The position numbers and the translations under genes are program-made. This document shows positions 1,899-48,407 of a DNA stretch of 64,000 nucleotides, piece after piece. The stretch is from Patescibacteria group bacterium. GTDB taxonomy: Bacteria > Patescibacteriota > Minisyncoccia > Phycocordibacterales > UBA918. Positions within the stretch are counted from its first letter, which is position 1, and every line of letters begins with the position of its first letter. The notes under the pieces were generated by a model that saw only the letters and a program-made list of their open reading frames with translations, was not told the origin of the DNA and ran no database searches. Location: positions 16,858 to 80,857 of the forward strand of contig JAZKFU010000002.1 of assembly GCA_040386275.1 (NCBI GenBank), given 5' to 3'.

Positions 1899-3407
1899 TT
1901 ATGGCGAAACAACCAGGGTGCCGACTGCAATACCAGAAATCCCAACCCAGCCATCATTGCCATCAGCAATTTTTGTCACGCTAGTAGTGGCAATTTGATT
2001 ATTAACGAGCGTTCGTACAAACGCACTATTATTTTCTTCGGTAATATATCGTTTAGGAATCCGGTTAACATCAGGAGTTGATTTAATAATGATATCAACA
2101 TCAGCATTAAGGCCACCACGCAGCCATTGGGGGATGGTATTAAGCGTGATAGTAATTTCAAAATATCCTACGCCATCAATTTGAATAGGGAGGGGAGAAA
2201 TATACGACACAACTCCCGTAAGTGGAGTGGTAATGTCGGCATCAAATAGAACGCGGGTGTTTTGTCCAATAGCTATAGTCGTAATATCAATTTCAGGAAT
2301 CCGGGCTTTCAGTTCAATGTCATTTGTTGCGAGAACGGTAAATAAAGGGACTGTACCGGCGGTTTCTCCCGCAACAATATCAACCGTGGTGACGGTGCCG
2401 GTAAACGGAGCCACAATAGCGCGGTCTCCGATTTGAGCATCAATTTGTGCAATCGTCGCACTCGCCTTATTAATCCGTGCGTTGGCCCGGGCCACTGCTT
2501 CACTACGGGGTGCGGCGTTGGTTGATGTTTGTTCTTGTTGGGCTAAAGTAAGGGCTTGTTTGGCGGCCGCGATAGTGGTGCGCGCGGTGTTCTCAGCCAC
2601 TGCAAGGGCATTTTTATTTGCTGTATAACTTTCTCCTGCGGTATTAGGAATGGCAATTTCCCAGACTGAATCACTGTATGAGGCTCCAGGGGTAAAGAGG
2701 GCGAATAAACCACATGTACCAAATGCTGCTGGTTGGTCTATTGATACCGGACCGGTACTGGTTTCTAGTCCAGACACGCGCATCGAATAAACAGATTCAG
2801 CACTTGAGCGGTATACGCTCAATATGTACGTTCCTTCCTTGGCACAGCGATAGGTACCAGAAATGGTGGGAGCGGGTGCCGATTCGGTAGCGTCATTACT
2901 TCGAGCAATCAGGGTTCCGGAACGAAGGGCTCGTTTTGCATTTTCTACCAACACTGCCTGAGTGGCTTCGGTACGTTCAAACTCTGCTGTCGCTATCGCT
3001 ACTTTAGTATTTGTGATGTCACGTTTAGTCGTAGTGTCTCCAGCGAGTAATTCCGCTCTATCTGCTTCAGCGACGGCGAGATCAGCCAGCGCGCTTGCTC
3101 TGGTTGCAACTAATTCTTCGGCACCTAAGGTGGCGAGAATGGTGCCGGATTCAACCACATCTCCTTCTTTGACGTACACTTTCGAAACTACTCCGGGTGT
3201 TGGGAAGGCAAGTTCTGCCGTATTGCGAGCTTTAGTAACGCCGGAAACAGAAACCAGACTTTCAACCGTACCGCGCTCAACTTGCGTGGTCACGAGACCT
3301 TGAAGCGGGTCTCGATTAATTTTTTCGATAACTACATAAGTCCCTATAACAATAGATAGAGCAATGAAGCTCGTAATTAGTTTGTGTCGTCGAATAAGTG
3401 TGAACAT
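1899..3407 (-). CDS. Efflux periplasmic adaptor subunit (HlyD/MacA family)
   Basis: 502 aa with N-terminal TM anchor, biotin-lipoyl-like segments and long Ala/Glu-rich coiled coil. First gene of the adaptor-permease-ATPase operon. Confidence 0.8.
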   Translation of the reverse strand: MFTLIRRHKLITSFIALSIVIGTYVVIEKINRDPLQGLVTTQVERGTVESLVSVSGVTKARNTAELAFPTPGVVSKVYVKEGDVVESGTILATLGAEELVATRASALADLAVAEADRAELLAGDTTTKRDITNTKVAIATAEFERTEATQAVLVENAKRALRSGTLIARSNDATESAPAPTISGTYRCAKEGTYILSVYRSSAESVYSMRVSGLETSTGPVSIDQPAAFGTCGLFALFTPGASYSDSVWEIAIPNTAGESYTANKNALAVAENTARTTIAAAKQALTLAQQEQTSTNAAPRSEAVARANARINKASATIAQIDAQIGDRAIVAPFTGTVTTVDIVAGETAGTVPLFTVLATNDIELKARIPEIDITTIAIGQNTRVLFDADITTPLTGVVSYISPLPIQIDGVGYFEITITLNTIPQWLRGGLNADVDIIIKSTPDVNRIPKRYITEENNSAFVRTLVNNQIATTSVTKIADGNDGWVGISGIAVGTLVVSP

Positions 3408-3477: not shown

Positions 3478-3553
3478 GTCCGTGTGCCTGGACTCGAACC
3501 AGGGACCACAGAGGTATAAGCTCTGCGCTCTAACCAACTGAGCTACACACGGA
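3478..3553 (-). tRNA. tRNA-Ile, anticodon UAU (reads AUA)
   Basis: Reverse complement folds as a cloverleaf. Acceptor TCCGTGT/ACACGGA, anticodon stem CAGAG/CTCTG, loop CTTATAC (U33, A37), T-arm CCTGG-TTCGAGT-CCAGG, no encoded CCA. Confidence 0.7.
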
Positions 3554-15858: not shown

Positions 15859-15945
15859 GGAGAAGTGTCAGAGTGGTCTATCGTGTTTCCTTGCTAAGGA
15901 AATAGGGGTTTGCGCCCCTCGGAGGTTCGAATCCTCTCTTCTCCG
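15859..15945 (+). tRNA. tRNA-Ser, anticodon GCU
   Basis: Acceptor GGAGAAG/CTTCTCC, anticodon loop TTGCTAA, long variable arm, T-arm GGAGG-TTCGAAT-CCTCT, discriminator G, no CCA. Confidence 0.8.
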
Positions 15946-16242
15946 CAAATACCAAAACCCAAACAAAGCCTAAGCTTTGTTTGGGTTTTGTTGTATTTGC
16001 GCGAGAAGAGAGGATTCGAAAAGGTTGCCAGCTATTTTGCAAAAATAGCGACTGTCAATTGAGCGAGCGTTATAAAAATTTATTTTTATAACCGAGTGAA
16101 AGCAGACAGAAAGCTCTGCTTACAACCTATACTGGTCTGTAAGCAGAGCTTTCTTTCACTGCATTCGCAACATAAATAAAAGTAAATTTTTTATTTAGTT
16201 ACTCATTTGTGAAAGTAACAACCGAATCCTCTCTTCTCCGCG
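15946..16242 (+). repeat. tRNA-3'-end composite repeat unit (subfamily 1) downstream of tRNA-Ser(GCU)
   Basis: T1 hairpin AAAACCCAAACAAAGC-CTAA-GCTTTGTTTGGGTTTT (15954-15989). Inverted tRNA 3' copy GCGCGAGAAGAGAGGATTCGAA (15999-16020). Core AAGGTTGCCAGCTATTTTGCAAAAATAGCGACTG plus long hairpin AGAAAGCTCTGCTTACA / TGTAAGCAGAGCTTTCT. Direct copy CCGAATCCTCTCTTCTCCGC (16222-16242). Confidence 0.6.
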
Positions 16243-18074: not shown

Positions 18075-18575
18075 ATGAATAAAAAAGCAACTCTAGCAGG
18101 GGGATGTTTCTGGGGCTTAGAAGACCTCCTTCGTGACCAAACCGGAGTAATTACCACTGAAGCTGGTTATACCGGAGGAACAAACGATAATCCCACCTAT
18201 CAACATCACCCCGGTCACGCAGAAGCCGTAGAAATTACCTATAACCCCGAGATTATTTCGTATAAGCAACTATTAGATTTCTTCTTCCAAATTCATAATC
18301 CCACCACGCTTAATCAGCAGGGTAATGACCGCGGCACAGCCTACCGCTCAGCTATTTTTTATGGCAATGAGGAAGAAAAAGCGATAGCGCACGAGATGAT
18401 TGGTATTGTAAACGACTCAAAACGCTGGGATGCACCGGTGGTTACCACGCTTGAACCGCTAACCACTTTTTGGCCAGCCGAAGACTATCACCAAGATTAC
18501 CTCATTAAAAATCCCGGAGGTTATACCTGCCACGCCATCTACTTTGATAGTTATTTGAAAACTAAGCCCCTATAG
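18075..18575 (+). CDS. msrA: Peptide-methionine (S)-S-oxide reductase
   Basis: 166 aa with 'GGCFWG' active-site motif. Confidence 0.9.
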   Translation: MNKKATLAGGCFWGLEDLLRDQTGVITTEAGYTGGTNDNPTYQHHPGHAEAVEITYNPEIISYKQLLDFFFQIHNPTTLNQQGNDRGTAYRSAIFYGNEEEKAIAHEMIGIVNDSKRWDAPVVTTLEPLTTFWPAEDYHQDYLIKNPGGYTCHAIYFDSYLKTKPL

Positions 18576-18709
18576 TCTATACTGACGAGCGTCCAGGGAG
18601 GACTTGCCCAGTGGGTAAAACATGAACTGCTTCATGTTTTACCGCGTAGCGAGGCAGACACGAGGCCAATCTCTCTGCAGGGCGACAATTTGAACGAAGT
18701 GAATATACT

Positions 18710-18796
18710 GGAGGATTGGCCGAGTGGCTGAAGGCAGCGGTTTACTAAACCGCCAGAGGGTAAAACTTCTCGTGAGTTCGAATCTCACATCCTCCG
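18710..18796 (+). tRNA. Type-II tRNA, Ser-like, with anticodon loop TTACTAA (apparent anticodon ACU)
   Basis: Acceptor GGAGGAT/ATCCTCC, Ser-like D-arm GCCGAGTGGCTGAAGGC, anticodon stem GCGGT/ACCGC, 18-nt variable arm, T-arm GTGAG-TTCGAAT-CTCAC, discriminator G. Confidence 0.65.
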
Positions 18797-18957
18797 CACA
18801 TACCAAAACCCAAACAAAGCTTAGGCTTTGTTTGGGTTTTGTTGTATGCGCGCGAAGATGTGAGATTCGAAGCCCGATTGAGATATTTTGGAGCGTAGCG
18901 AACATAAATATCCAATTGGGGTACTGATCATGTAAGGTTCGAATCTCACATCCTCCG
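18797..18957 (+). repeat. tRNA-3'-end composite repeat unit SerL-1 (subfamily 2)
   Basis: T1 hairpin 18805-18840, nearly identical to the unit at 15954. Inverted copy GCGCGCGAAGATGTGAGATTCGAA (18848-18871). Core contains GGAGCGTAGCGAA. Direct copy GGTTCGAATCTCACATCCTCCG (18936-18957). Confidence 0.6.
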
Positions 18958-19158
18958 CCCGTATAAAATACCGCCTGTAAGGGCGGTTATTTTATTGGGC
19001 GGAGGATGAGCGAGTGACTAATGTCACTCGCGGTGAGATTCGAAAGACGGAAGCATGTCGCTCTGCGACAGCTGAGTCGGGGTCGAGAGTACTTACTAGA
19101 ATCAGAGCGTAGCGAATGATTATAGTTAGTAACTCGTGACCGAATCTCACATCCTCCG
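18958..19158 (+). repeat. tRNA-3'-end composite repeat unit SerL-2 (subfamily 2), in tandem
   Basis: Hairpin AAAATACCGCC-TGTAA-GGGCGGTTATTTT. Inverted copy GGGCGGAGGATG-[AGCGAGTGACTAATGTCACTCGC]-GGTGAGATTCGAA (18997-19044). Core AGACGGAAGCATGTCGCTCTGCGACAG...GTCGGGGTCGAGA plus GAGCGTAGCGAA. Direct copy CCGAATCTCACATCCTCCG (19140-19158). Confidence 0.6.
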
Positions 19159-19196
19159 CCCGCATAATCATCAATAAATTTGATATAATTAAAAAC

Positions 19197-19523
19197 ATGT
19201 CAATAGAAAAATTAAACCATAGCAGTCAAAATGAAAGTGACTTTGAGCAAAGAATGCAGGTTGAATACATCTCTCATATAATCGATAGTTTGATTAAAAT
19301 TGAAGTTTCAGTAACTGACCTCGAAGACAGGGATCATTTAAAAGATGTTCTGTCACAATCTCGATACGATTATGAGGAGATGCCTGAATCTCATATGGAT
19401 GAAAGTGAATTAGCGAAAGAAAAAGAGGCCTTACATGCGCTTGCTGAATTGGTGGGTAACCCTGAATTATCAAATGACCAAAGGGAAGAACTAATTAAGC
19501 AGAGACTTTCAAGCTGGTTCTAA
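19197..19523 (+). CDS. Hypothetical acidic protein, 108 aa, carried inside the tandem repeat array
   Basis: ORF flanked by direct copies of the tRNA 3' end. Acidic and helical, with no known motif. Confidence 0.45.
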   Translation: MSIEKLNHSSQNESDFEQRMQVEYISHIIDSLIKIEVSVTDLEDRDHLKDVLSQSRYDYEEMPESHMDESELAKEKEALHALAELVGNPELSNDQREELIKQRLSSWF

Positions 19524-19544
19524 CATCGTCCCATAACGCCCGCA

Positions 19545-19770
19545 AATACCAAAACCCAAACAAAGCCTAAGCTTTGTTTGGGTTTTGTTGTATGTGCGCG
19601 AGGATGTGAGATTCGAAAGGCACAGGCATGTTTTTACTCTTCCTAAAGTAAAAACAGCGGGAGAAACAGTGTCTAAACACTGTTTCTCGGGTAGCGAACA
19701 CTTAGTAGAATCTGCACGCAGTGCAAGATTATACTTAGTGATTCGTGAACGAATCTCACATCCGTGTACC
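19545..19770 (+). repeat. tRNA-3'-end composite repeat unit SerL-3 (subfamily 2)
   Basis: Remnant CGCCCGCAAATACC, then T1 hairpin 19551-19586 identical to 15954-15989. Inverted copy GTGCGCGAGGATGTGAGATTCGAA (19594-19617). Core has GGGTAGCGAACACTTAGTAGA...TTAGTGATTCGTGA. Degenerate direct copy ACGAATCTCACATCC (19749-19763). Confidence 0.55.
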
Positions 19771-19830
19771 TCTATGATGCTTATGTTTTATTGACTACAA
19801 TTTTACCAATTAAATACATATATTAAGGTA

Positions 19831-20457
19831 TTAATGCGCCCAGGCCAGTAAACTAACCTCGGTTGTGCTGGGTAGGTGTGGCAACAGTACCTCACGAGCA
19901 GCCATGAGTGTACTGCCCGTTGTGCAGACGTCATCACAGAGAATAATGCGCTCATATTGAGAGAGCAGATGTATATATTTTGGAGTACAGCTAAAAGCCT
20001 GTTCAACATTTTTTTCACGCATGATCCGATTCAAAGATGTCTGGGGTTTTGTGTGTCTACTTCTGGTGAGGATGTGTGCATGAATGGTTGCATTGTAGTT
20101 GGAGGTTTTGATATAGGTAAGTACTCGCGCCACCTGATTAAAACCCCACTCTCGTTCTCGCTTCAGACTGAGTGGAATCGGAATAATAAGAGTTTTTTTC
20201 GTGGGTAAAGTTTTAAGATGGGTCGCAACAAGCACGCCTAATAATTTTGCTGCATAAAAATTATGTTCAAACTTGCACGCGGCTATTGCGGCCTGAATGG
20301 TGGGTATGTGGTAGGAAGATAAACAAGTAATTGAGTGGTGAGTGTGTGGCTGATAAAAATTTTCAAATCGTAATGGAGTAACCTGTCGTAATACACGTTC
20401 ATGAATCGTGGGTGGAAAAATAAAATCAAGAATTATTCGTAACGGGTATAGCATCTC
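19831..20457 (-). CDS. comFC: ComF family protein (phosphoribosyltransferase-like competence protein)
   Basis: PRTase motif 'IILCDDVCTTGSTL'. Start moved to the internal Met (MLYPLRI) at 20457 to avoid a 50-bp overlap with pilM; the ORF is open to 20547. Confidence 0.7.
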   Translation of the reverse strand, partial: EMLYPLRIILDFIFPPTIHERVLRQVTPLRFENFYQPHTHHSITCLSSYHIPTIQAAIAACKFEHNFYAAKLLGVLVATHLKTLPTKKTLIIPIPLSLKREREWGFNQVARVLTYIKTSNYNATIHAHILTRSRHTKPQTSLNRIMREKNVEQAFSCTPKYIHLLSQYERIILCDDVCTTGSTLMAAREVLLPHLPSTTEVSLLAWAH

Positions 20458-36473: not shown

Positions 36474-36690
36474 GGGTTCCGGAATCGAGTCACGAATCAC
36501 TAAGTATATTATTTCGCTACGCTCATAATCTACTAAGTGTTCTTGACCACACCTCGCGGTTTTCTTTTCTGGTAAAAAGAAAACATCGCTGCGGTCGTTC
36601 GATTCCGCCGAAAGCAAAGCAGTTTGCTTTCTGAACTCCGCAACAAAAACGTAAAACCTCTGTCAATAAAGACAGAGGTTTTACGTAATG
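36474..36690 (-). repeat. tRNA-3'-end composite repeat unit (subfamily 2) downstream of initiator-like tRNA-Met, minus orientation
   Basis: In tRNA orientation: hairpin AAAACCTCTGTC-TTTATT-GACAGAGGTTTT; inverted copy TTGCGG-[AGTTCAGAAAGCAAACTGCTTTGCTTTC]-GGCGGAATCGAA; core with GAGCGTAGCGAA...TTAGTGATTCGTGA; direct copy CTCGATTCCGGAACCC (plus 36474-36489). Confidence 0.55.
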
Positions 36691-36761
36691 TTGCGGGTTC
36701 CGGAATCGAACCGGAGTCTGGAGGTTATGAGCCTCCCGAGGTACCTCTCCTCTAACCCGCT
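36691..36761 (-). tRNA. tRNA-Met (CAU), initiator-like
   Basis: Anticodon loop CTCATAA, A1:A72 mismatch, A11:U24 in the D-stem, T-arm TCCGG-TTCGATT-CCGGA, no CCA. Confidence 0.7.
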
Positions 36762-37694: not shown

Positions 37695-37768
37695 GTCGGT
37701 GTAGCTCAGCTGGTTAGAGCGTAGCACTCATAACGCTAAGGTCGGAGGTTCGAGCCCCCCCATCGACA
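37695..37768 (+). tRNA. tRNA-Met (CAU), elongator-like
   Basis: Acceptor GTCGGTG/CATCGAC (one GU), anticodon loop CTCATAA, T-loop TTCGAGC. Carries an A31-C39 mismatch and a T-stem mismatch, so it is somewhat degenerate. Confidence 0.6.
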
Positions 37769-37919: not shown

Positions 37920-38084
37920 CAAATGAAAGAGCCCTTCGGGGCTTTTTCGTTTACGCGAGCGAAAGAAAGCGCCTGCGCGCTTTCTGGTGGGATTCGAAAG
38001 CCGGAGTCATGTCGCCCTGCGACAGACGAGACGGGGTCGCGAAAATTTCTGAAAGAAATTATTTGTGACCGAATCCCATCGCTC
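37920..38084 (+). repeat. tRNA-3'-end composite repeat unit (subfamily 2) downstream of tRNA-Asp
   Basis: Hairpin AAAGAGCCC-TTCG-GGGCTTTTT. Inverted copy CGCGAGCG-[AAAGAAAGCGCCTGCGCGCTTTCTGGT]-GGGATTCGAA (37954-37998). Core AGCCGGAGTCATGTCGCCCTGCGACAGACGAGACGGGGTCGCGA. Direct copy CCGAATCCCATCGCTC (38069-38084). Confidence 0.6.
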
Positions 38085-38126
38085 CCACTCCTTCAAACAT
38101 CATCCCCCATCTGCTACACTACCCCC

Positions 38127-46287: not shown

Positions 46288-46443
46288 TGCCTGATCGTCT
46301 AATGGTAAGCAAAGCTTTCTTGAACGGCACTCAGACAATACATACAAGCAAGCTTTAATGTAAGTCTTCGTTTGTTCAAGTAGGACTCTGGTTTTTGGTA
46401 CCAGCTATTGAGGAAAGAATTCTAAGAATTCGAGTCTCATAGG
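46288..46443 (+). pseudogene. Degraded duplicate of tRNA-Gln interrupted in the D-loop by a 74-nt insertion
   Basis: TGCCTGATCGTCTAATGGTA matches the tRNA-Gln 5' part. After the 46308-46381 insertion, AGGACTCTGGTTTTTGGTACCAGCTATTG continues (anticodon arm intact), but the T-arm and acceptor 3' strand are divergent (GAATTCTAAGAATTCGAGTCTCATAGG). Confidence 0.45.
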
Positions 46444-46456
46444 AAACTAAATTAAT

Positions 46457-46527: not shown

Positions 46528-46763
46528 CGAGTAGAAAAGACATCCCTCGGGATGTTTTTTCGTATCGCTGCCTGACAGGCGCAGCTTTCTGAAAGAAAGC
46601 GTCTGCGCGGACTCGAAAAGGTTGCCAGCTATTTTGAAAAAATAGCGACTGATAATTGAATGAGTGAAATGAAAATTTATTTTCATTTCCGAGTGAATGC
46701 AATCAGGAAGCTTTGCTTACAACCTGTACTGAAGCTGTAAGCTTCGAGTCCCTGTCAGGCAGC
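46528..46763 (+). repeat. tRNA-3'-end composite repeat unit (subfamily 1) downstream of tRNA-Gln
   Basis: Hairpin AAAAGACATCCC-TCGG-GATGTTTTTT. Inverted copy CGCTGCCTGACAGG-[CGCAGCTTTCTGAAAGAAAGCGTCTGCGC]-GGACTCGAA (46566-46617). Core AAGGTTGCCAGCTATTTTGAAAAAATAGCGACTG...GAGTGAA...GCTTACAACCTGTACTGAAGCTGTAAGC shares about 85% with the unit at 16021-16160. Direct copy TTCGAGTCCCTGTCAGGCAGC (46743-46763). Confidence 0.6.
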
Positions 46764-46836
46764 AAAATATTGACAATAAAATTTATTATTGTATTATCAA
46801 ATTTAAATAGCTCATTAAATCTTAGAGGAGGTGCTA

Positions 46837-47606: not shown

Positions 47607-48407
47607 ATGGTACCATCAGTTCACATGAATTCCTCAAGTATAACCTTACCTACTACCATTGATGAAGTGATTGCGCATTTAGATGCTATCGTATTAACGT
47701 GTGAAGCTACGGGTTGTCGGATGGGTTATTTCCCCGCAATGTACAATCGGGTCACGAGACAAGTTAAGCAGCGCATCCTCGAAGGGTCTTTTGAAGATAA
47801 CGAACGCATGGAGCGGTTTGATGTTATTTTTGCTAACCGGTACTTAGTCGCGTACTATGCGTACGCCCAAAATAAGCCGTGTTCTGAATCGTGGAAAATA
47901 ACGTTTGAGGCGTCTAAAAAATGGAGCCCAATGGTGATTCAGCATTTGATTGCCAGTATGAATGCACACATTTGTTTAGATCTGGGTATATCAGCGGCAG
48001 AAACCGAAACACACAATTTACTGTCACTAAAAAATGACTTTGATCAGGTTAATGACATATTAGATTCACTGATTGAAGAAGTTGAAGCAGAACTTCGAGA
48101 AATATTTCATCCACTGACAACCTTTGATAAAATAACGGGAAACTCATATTGGCCCATTGCTCATCTGGGCATTATCAAATCTCGTACTGATGCTTGGCAT
48201 GTAGCTGAAGCATACGCCCAACTACAAACAGATAAAGAACGACAAATATTCATTCAGTTGCGTGATCATCACGTGGCGGTGATTGGAAAGAGGATTCTGC
48301 AACCGCCTAAACTGGTACGACTGCTGGTCGGAAAGGTGCGTGATTTTGAGAAAGGTACGGTTGCGGATAAAGTACACATTATGAATCGGAAAATTGTTCG
48401 CAACTAA
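47607..48407 (+). CDS. Hypothetical protein, 266 aa
   Basis: ORF only. Predicted helical with no recognised motif. Confidence 0.5.
   Translation: MVPSVHMNSSSITLPTTIDEVIAHLDAIVLTCEATGCRMGYFPAMYNRVTRQVKQRILEGSFEDNERMERFDVIFANRYLVAYYAYAQNKPCSESWKITFEASKKWSPMVIQHLIASMNAHICLDLGISAAETETHNLLSLKNDFDQVNDILDSLIEEVEAELREIFHPLTTFDKITGNSYWPIAHLGIIKSRTDAWHVAEAYAQLQTDKERQIFIQLRDHHVAVIGKRILQPPKLVRLLVGKVRDFEKGTVADKVHIMNRKIVRN

Follow-up and report, generated by a model that had tools for sequence, protein, structure and literature searches.

The gene at positions 18710–18796 (+) of the window, by which we mean the whole 64-kb stretch of DNA analyzed here, is a real and strongly conserved tRNA-Ser gene with the anticodon ACU. 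The tRNA belongs to an ordinary class, carries an anticodon that was thought to be unused, and is found in several classes of the Candidate Phyla Radiation (CPR) as well as in phage tRNA arrays. We consider it probable that the gene is a functional, vertically inherited tRNA-Ser(ACU) that serves as a dedicated decoder of AGU and whose A34 is not deaminated; its expression, its serylation, the unmodified state of A34, and the restriction of its decoding to AGU are what we infer. The rule that A34 does not occur in split codon boxes serves to account for the shape of tRNA gene sets and to flag pseudogenes, and tRNA-Ser(ACU) is a natural counter-example to it. A review devoted to missing tRNA genes calls A34 in the split box of Ser and Arg "universally missing" and lists Ser(ACU) as universally absent (PMC8007984). 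The initial annotation of this DNA was right about the rarity of such an encoded A34. Our literature search found no paper discussing a bacterial tRNA-Ser(ACU) or tRNA-Ser(ACT). For annotation pipelines, the implication is that Ser(ACT) calls in CPR genomes and phages should not be discarded.

Anatomy and genomic setting of the ACU gene

ARAGORN called nine tRNA-like genes in the window, including a Ser(act) tRNA that starts at 18710 and ends, in its call, at 18797. Rfam model RF00005 matched 18710–18796 with 54.3 bits (E = 6.6e-9), above the gathering score of 29 that defines membership in the tRNA family. Read directly, the acceptor stem has seven base pairs (GGAGGAT/ATCCTCC) and is followed by U8 and G9, the D stem is of the Ser type with three pairs (GCC/GGC), and the anticodon stem (GCGGT/ACCGC) closes a standard 7-nt loop, TTACTAA, with U33 and A37. 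From the anticodon stem to the T stem (GTGAG/CTCAC) there are 18 nt, which include a variable-arm helix of 5 bp, and the gene ends on the discriminator G73 at 18796 with no encoded CCA. The anticodon A34-C35-U36 occupies 18744–18746 (ARAGORN places it at position 35 of the tRNA), and none of the other registers of the loop yields a different anticodon. The minimum free energy fold recovers the acceptor, variable, and T arms (–35.1 kcal/mol, z = –3.2). The initial annotation had described this cloverleaf correctly in every detail, as judged by direct reading, ARAGORN, and Rfam, and the ARAGORN run that it had asked for upheld its reading of the anticodon as ACU. It had also placed a canonical tRNA-Ser(GCU) 2.8 kb upstream; ARAGORN and Rfam find this paralogue at 15859–15946 (+), 2.76 kb away by the ARAGORN coordinates.

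In E. coli, the identity of tRNA-Ser is set by G73, G1-C72, G2-C71, (A/U)3-70, and C11-G24, while tRNA-Leu and tRNA-Tyr carry A73. The window tRNA has G1-C72, G2-C71, A3-U70, C11-G24, a long variable arm, and G73, and the helix in its variable arm together with G73 and the identity pairs places it among bacterial type-II tRNA-Ser. It is not a tRNA-Sec: its architecture is 7+5 with the anticodon ACU, and tRNA-Sec is 8+5 (or 9+4) with UCA. A second call by ARAGORN of a tRNA with A34, tRNA-His(ATG) at 47823–47903, is a false positive because it lies inside an ORF (47607–48407) and has no Rfam tRNA match.

A consensus scan places a putative promoter upstream of the leader element (described below) and the tRNA, at 18555–18583 (+), where TTGAAA and TATACT are separated by 17 nt and together match the consensus at 10 of 12 positions; relatives have TATAAT at the equivalent position. 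The window is chromosomal, with pyrB, pyrC, recG, ligA, gatA, and pyrG present, and the best protein matches of its malic enzyme (100% identity, then 97% and 93%) are all named Patescibacteria group bacterium at NCBI, identifying the organism as an ultra-small bacterium of the CPR/Patescibacteria. It also carries genes for an MSHA-type pilus and has a G+C content of 44%. A tRNA-Ile(UAU) lies at 3478–3552 (–; Rfam 70.7 bits), and the same tRNA is found near Ser tRNAs in the family of the window and in other CPR loci (L042, L088, L122, L276, L278, L280, and L281). Its anticodon is another that is unusual for bacteria, and it fits a nonstandard decoding set in the CPR.

Conservation and ancestry

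The same tRNA sequence, A34 included, is present in the Logan assembly of SRR26324626 and in GCA_040384005.1, of which the latter differs from the window in a downstream repeat and is therefore a separate strain. A sequencing correction to a standard anticodon, which the initial annotation had named as an outcome that would overturn its reading, is thus contradicted by the same A34 in two other assemblies. We scanned genome and metagenome contigs with a pattern in which the anticodon arm was fixed by design and position 34 was left free. The genome scan returned at least 120 loci, and among the matches listed 94 have G34, 26 have A34, and one has C34; ARAGORN calls tRNA-Ser(act) at all 26 of the A34 loci among these listed matches. 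A more specific scan of metagenomes gave 78 G34 and 42 A34 among the matches listed. Where a tRNA found by pattern has the acceptor, D arm, and anticodon arm of the window, A34 is present in every case (44 of 44 among the matches listed, with G34 in none).

The contigs of these 44 tRNAs are syntenic with the window across neighbors that have diverged to very different extents: malic enzyme is 82–87% identical, RecQ 68–74%, the MFS transporter 58–62%, the PilM-like MshI 52–63%, and the ComF-family protein 35–42%. Because the pattern scans fix the anticodon arm, we also fetched six relatives via the malic enzyme alone, four of which extended far enough to be of use. Each of the four has tRNA-Ser(ACU) with its first 45 nt identical to those of the window, while the neighboring tRNA-Ser(GCU) varies between genomes in this set. 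Comparison with orthologous loci, a check proposed in the initial annotation, thus finds both A34 and synteny kept in relatives.

To examine the stems, we aligned 25 distinct ACU tRNAs, nine from the family of the window, eight from other CPR, two from MAGs labeled Planctomycetota, and six from viral contigs. Standard pairs fill 99.4% of the stem cells. Compensatory changes occur in 14 of the 25 pairs, a result that none of 500 shuffles equaled and that no slid register came close to, and they occur in all five pairs of the variable-arm helix. G1, G2, C11, and G25 never vary, and 24 of the 25 tRNAs have G73. Within the family of the window alone, the T stem alternates between A52-U62 and G52-C62, and the variable-arm helix exists in four compensated versions. 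In this alignment the anticodon arm had no room to vary, since it had served as the search key; the independent evidence for its invariance is the protein-anchored set. A tRNA pseudogene or fragment is ruled out by the full length of the gene, the paired state of the stem cells given above, and conservation across lineages.

Other genomes with an ACU gene are labeled Saccharibacteria, Paceibacteria, Nomurabacteria, Taylorbacteria, Planctomycetota, and Phycisphaerales among the matches listed; some contigs under these MAG labels, Planctomycetota above all, may be phage or mis-binned. Most CPR loci have a tRNA-Ser(GCU) within 0.04–3 kb of tRNA-Ser(ACU). Between CPR lineages the ACU tRNAs are 75–90% identical, and each has 60–70% identity to the GCU tRNA that its genome also encodes; judged from these sequence comparisons, the ACU/GCU paralogy is old. 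The body of the ACU tRNA occurs with a GCU anticodon in many other phyla, and likewise in one Dojkabacteria MAG and a further Patescibacteria MAG. Bacterial tRNA-Ser(GCU) shares with the window tRNA the type-II cloverleaf, the Ser identity features, and A37, and its body and anticodon arm, GGCAGCGGTTT-N-CTAAACCGCC, are identical to those of the window in 94 of 120 genome matches listed, from many phyla. The window tRNA differs in having A34 in place of G34, and in the genomes that carry it GCU sits on a second, diverged tRNA-Ser. Because the body is shared with the tRNA-Ser(GCU) of other phyla, the ACU gene looks like the ordinary tRNA-Ser(GCU) in which G34 changed to A long ago, with the second paralogue appearing to have kept GCU.

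An ANN anticodon in a split box normally marks a pseudogene or an error, and a recently duplicated, drifting tRNA was among the possibilities raised in the initial annotation. We find it scarcely credible that the gene is such a copy, whether drifting or dead, or that position 34 is a sequencing or assembly error. A34 recurs in independent assemblies and strains and is fixed in a locus that remains syntenic across neighbor proteins 35–87% identical; the stems have undergone compensatory changes; and the paralogy is old, with an identity of 60–70% to the GCU tRNA of the same genome and with the ACU gene evolving more slowly than that paralogue. The drifting copy is refuted by these observations.

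Decoding of AGU and the state of A34

We propose that SerRS would charge tRNA-Ser(ACU) like any type-II tRNA-Ser and that the ribosome would read AGU with it via a Watson–Crick A34:U pair. The paralogue tRNA-Ser(GCU) would cover AGC and could wobble to AGU. A34 most likely stays nondeaminated because this lineage seems to do without the TadA/inosine system and because the anticodon loop differs from that of tRNA-Arg(ACG); with no I34, misreading of AGA (Arg) would not arise. A counterpoint is that tRNA-Ser(ACU) looks redundant, since tRNA-Ser(GCU) can read AGU by G:U wobble. In a broader form of the proposal, which we hold as possible but short of probable, tRNA-Ser(ACU), with A34 either plain or carrying a modification other than inosine, is the principal AGU decoder of an inosine-free scheme that is common to much of the CPR and has been borrowed by some freshwater phages.

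Codon usage is suggestive of an AGU decoder, and the argument from it is modest. The commonest Ser codon in the window is AGU (303 occurrences, versus 81 for AGC). In the family of the window the AGU/AGC ratio is 2.3, compared with a geometric mean of 1.5 for the other NNU/NNC pairs, while in loci that have only G34 the ratio is 0.4–0.5 compared with 0.5–0.65 for other pairs, so that there the AGY box is more C-biased. Pooled CPR and Planctomycetota loci from outside the family show no excess of AGU (1.13 versus 1.12), and the signal is absent in the viral set too. In alignments with orthologues, AGU stands opposite Ser at 113 of 241 positions, a profile like that of UCU and UCA. AGA, of which the window contains 52, stands opposite Ser at none of 38 aligned positions; recoding of AGA to Ser is ruled out by this result and by the tRNA-Arg(UCU) of a relative, L185, which has the same tRNA-Ser(ACU) and the same terminator hairpin.

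Thirty-three IMG/VR viral contigs carry tRNA-Ser(ACU). The tRNA arrays on these contigs are mostly made up of tRNAs that read A/U-ending codons (Lys-UUU 25, Gln-UUG 26, Thr-UGU 26, Glu-UUC 20, Arg-UCU 19, and Ile-UAU 14), and the presence of Ser(ACU) among them is as expected of a translational AGU decoder. The Ser(ACU) of phage arrays has the same anticodon arm as the window tRNA, and the window copy differs in being chromosomal, solitary, and syntenic within a cellular lineage. One phage lineage of Ser(ACU), beginning GGAATCT, recurs in 30 of the 33 viral contigs (L243–L275, 5–323 kb), and the T stem of some copies contains a U50:U64 mismatch or a G:U pair.

To our knowledge, tRNA-Arg(ACG) is the sole widespread bacterial tRNA with an encoded A34, and in it TadA recognizes the motif UACG, formed by U33-A34-C35-G36. 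The loop of tRNA-Ser(ACU), U32-U33-A34-C35-U36-A37-A38, has U33-A34-C35 and A37-A38 in common with tRNA-Arg(ACG) and differs from it in U32 and in U36, which replaces the G36 of TadA substrates. Inosine is nevertheless the usual fate of an encoded A34: nearly all known A34 tRNAs are converted to I34, which in some Firmicutes has been extended to Leu and Thr tRNAs (PMC8007984). That a relaxed TadA-like enzyme converts A34 here as well, so that the tRNA reads AGU and AGC and perhaps AGA, is in our judgment improbable. According to published work (PMC8629427), the CPR have no tRNA-Arg(ACG) and rely on tRNA-Arg(GCG), and inosine goes unused in some deep-branching bacteria; L185 indeed carries a tRNA-Arg(GCG) (3004–3076, 62.5 bits). 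For these reasons inosine is unlikely in tRNA-Ser(ACU), and the initial annotation was probably mistaken in its premise that A34 has to be deaminated to inosine. The position of U36 also argues against TadA, and I34 would misread AGA, yet AGA is in use, is never aligned with Ser, and has its own tRNA-Arg(UCU) in L185. No ORF with a deaminase motif was found in the 64-kb window.

The apparent redundancy with tRNA-Ser(GCU) and the invariant anticodon arm would also be compatible with a serine-charged tRNA that works mainly outside ribosomal decoding, as a donor for an envelope or lipid aminoacyl-transferase or as a regulator, with the odd anticodon barring it from translation. Dedicated nonproteinogenic tRNAs do exist elsewhere, such as the Staphylococcus tRNA-Gly used for peptidoglycan. 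We think such a role unlikely for tRNA-Ser(ACU): the anticodon loop has the standard 7 nt, with U33 and A37 in place, and all stems are standard, phages carry Ser(ACU) within decoding arrays, AGU is the favored Ser codon in the family of the window, and no Fem/MurM-like gene is linked to the tRNA in any locus examined.

Other systems offer parallels for a nondeaminated A34. Mycoplasma tRNA-Thr(AGU) and yeast mitochondrial tRNA-Arg(ACG) have an encoded A34 that remains without inosine, as proposed for the window tRNA, the deaminase being absent or not applied there. Unmodified A34 can read more than U, as in Mycoplasma tRNA-Thr(AGU) and in variants of E. coli tRNA-Gly(ACC), and tRNA-Ser(ACU) could therefore misread AGC, AGA, or AGG. 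The Mycoplasma and mitochondrial tRNAs sit in four-codon boxes, where promiscuity is harmless, whereas the A34 of the window lies in the AGN split box that Ser shares with Arg. The gene bears on whether unmodified A34 can tell AGU from AGC, AGA, and AGG in vivo, on whether loss of TadA frees A34 for such a role, and on why a reduced genome has two AGY decoders. If the broader form of the proposal is correct, "forbidden" ANN anticodons of split boxes would be viable once TadA is absent, and the G34 paralogue would serve mainly for AGC.

Hairpin elements beside the tRNA genes

Structured elements that copy the ends of the tRNA flank tRNA-Ser(ACU) on both sides. Upstream, element U (18597–18675; +) repeats the 5′ end of the tRNA (GGAGGACTTGCCCAGTGG) and, past an inner hairpin, holds the complement of that end (GAGGCCAATCTCTC); when folded together with the tRNA as a read-through, the 3′ arm of element U pairs with the 5′ end of the tRNA. 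Many relatives have element U, among them L207, L182, L137, L277, and L144, and it is absent in L279 and L281. A conserved spacer, GGGCGACAATTTGAGCGAAGCGAATATATT, joins it to the tRNA in the window and in L207, L182, L144, and L277. In some relatives element U is bracketed by a duplication of the 20-nt 5′ flank together with 18 nt from the start of the tRNA, much like an insertion in the D loop.

Downstream of the tRNA, a terminator-like hairpin at 18804–18847 (+) has a 17-bp stem and the loop TTAG and is followed by TTGTAT. Near-copies of it lie after tRNA-Ser(GCU), at about 15953–15995, and at 19550–19587; a terminator scan lists the copy at 19550–19587 and not the one at 18804–18847, which has only four T in its tail. 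The next unit, E1, begins with an inverted copy of the last 18 nt of the tRNA, GAAGATGTGAGATTCGAA, at 18854–18871 (+), with two mismatches; no such match would be expected by chance. By sequence reading, a 65-nt interior of what we call type A (GCCCGATTGAG..CCAATTGGGGTACTG) and a direct copy make up the rest of E1 (18872–18958; +), and the direct copy, at 18937–18958, contains the T loop, the 3′ strand of the T stem, and the 3′ strand of the acceptor. In element E2 (18997–19161; +), of type B, a hairpin splits the inverted 3′-end copy; two inner stem-loops and, at 19138–19160, a direct copy complete the element. Its fold is more stable on the forward strand (–90.5 kcal/mol, z = –11.3) than on the reverse strand (–80.9 kcal/mol), and an alignment of 10 type-B copies supports a common fold, with compensatory changes in 27 of 44 pairs. 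A third unit (19529–19763; +) comprises a degenerate 3′-end copy, a terminator-like hairpin, an inverted copy at 19599–19617, a type-B interior, and a partial direct copy at about 19749–19763. Between the repeat units lies an ORF of 108 amino acids (19197–19523; +) that encodes the same protein in GCA_040384005.1 and has no family match. In relatives this spot is occupied by other genes (an oxidoreductase-like ORF in L137 and others in L207), and it therefore looks like an insertion point for cargo. An Rfam search of 18500–19850 at E ≤ 5 returned for the repeat units only chance hairpin matches to miRNA models and no RtT.

Elements of this kind are not confined to tRNA-Ser(ACU). Five tRNAs of the window, Ser(ACU), Ser(GCU), Met, Asp, and Gln, have structured hairpin elements whose ends match their own tRNA, and those beside the other four are at 16003–16242 (+) after tRNA-Ser(GCU), 36640–36478 (–) after tRNA-Met (36761–36690), 37955–38085 after tRNA-Asp, and 46570–46790 after tRNA-Gln. 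Many solitary tRNA genes of the family have the same arrangement on their 3′ side: it runs from the terminator hairpin through the 3′ end of that tRNA in inverted copy, in some cases broken by a small hairpin, to an interior and then a direct copy. In L185, tRNA-Ser(UGA), tRNA-Arg(GCG), tRNA-Arg(UCU), and tRNA-Val(UAC) each have an inverted copy of their own 3′ end at +46 to +50. Three types of interior are common to different tRNAs, and they occur only beside tRNAs and always in the orientation of the tRNA. Species differ in how many units they have and of which type, and some have none, with tRNA-Ser(ACU) unchanged.

The initial annotation had suggested that the gene might be a tRNA-like scaffold kept mainly as the target of its repeat units, that is, as an anchor for integration sites or structured elements. 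Direct and inverted copies of both ends of tRNA-Ser(ACU) do flank the gene, and islands with large serine recombinases adjoin Ser tRNAs in L276 and L278, but we consider this explanation highly improbable. The same units stand beside Ser(GCU), Met, Asp, and Gln in the window and beside Ser(UGA), Arg, and Val in L185, each matched to its own tRNA. Moreover, the units are variable or absent while the tRNA is invariant, including the anticodon arm, which the repeats do not copy, and some relatives have the identical tRNA but lack the upstream or the downstream units. The flanking elements do not account for the existence of the ACU tRNA. Of the three possibilities in the initial annotation, the two others fail on the evidence from conservation and from the repeats, and an unusual decoding solution is the sole survivor.

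As to what the elements are, we regard two identities as candidates: folded-hairpin attachment sites of small integrating cassettes, and tRNA-like minihelix RNAs that are processed with the tRNA. They may represent a new tRNA-linked mobile element or a new regulatory or RNA element. IMG/VR had no match to the interior motifs of the repeat units, and there is therefore no sign that they are phage attachment modules. Retroviral-type primer-binding sites and homing guides of CRISPR-transposons were dropped as readings of the inverted copies because there is no CCA complement, the units are 100–250 bp, and there are no associated genes. The E. coli tyrT/rtT repeats are known tRNA-linked repeats; 3′ repeats of the RtT/tyrT type do not describe the window units, which have no Rfam RtT match and hold both inverted and direct copies. 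Integrating elements leave partial copies of tRNAs (PMC9897764). These copies and the tyrT/rtT repeats resemble the window units in having direct 3′-end copies downstream of the tRNA, with cargo ORFs and recombinase islands nearby. Unlike either, the window units add an inverted copy, a structured interior common to different tRNAs, and a fixed orientation, and the window has a mirror-image element on the 5′ side of tRNA-Ser(ACU).

Several further features of these tRNA neighborhoods were observed. Genes for large serine recombinases (with Resolvase, Recombinase, and Zn_ribbon_recom domains) are present in L276 (10643–12391) and L278 (13624–14934), where they and island-like cargo directly adjoin tRNA-Ser(GCU) or tRNA-Ser(ACU). 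In L155, L178, L194, and L278, the tRNA or its last repeat is followed by a shared sequence, ACTAAGTATCGG(A/T)GTGACCC, that may be the end of an island. The tRNA(CAU) at 36690–36761 (–), which may be an initiator, an elongator, or an Ile2 tRNA, scores 55.5 bits in Rfam although its D arm, AGAGGAGAGGTACCTCG, is atypical and lacks the D loop with GG that is normally found. A tandem pseudo-tRNA-Gln, at about 46288–46456, immediately precedes the intact tRNA-Gln; it is a copy with a decayed T arm and a 76-nt insertion in its D loop that starts with AGCAAAGCTTTC; the same start follows TCGGTGTA upstream of the tRNA at 37695.
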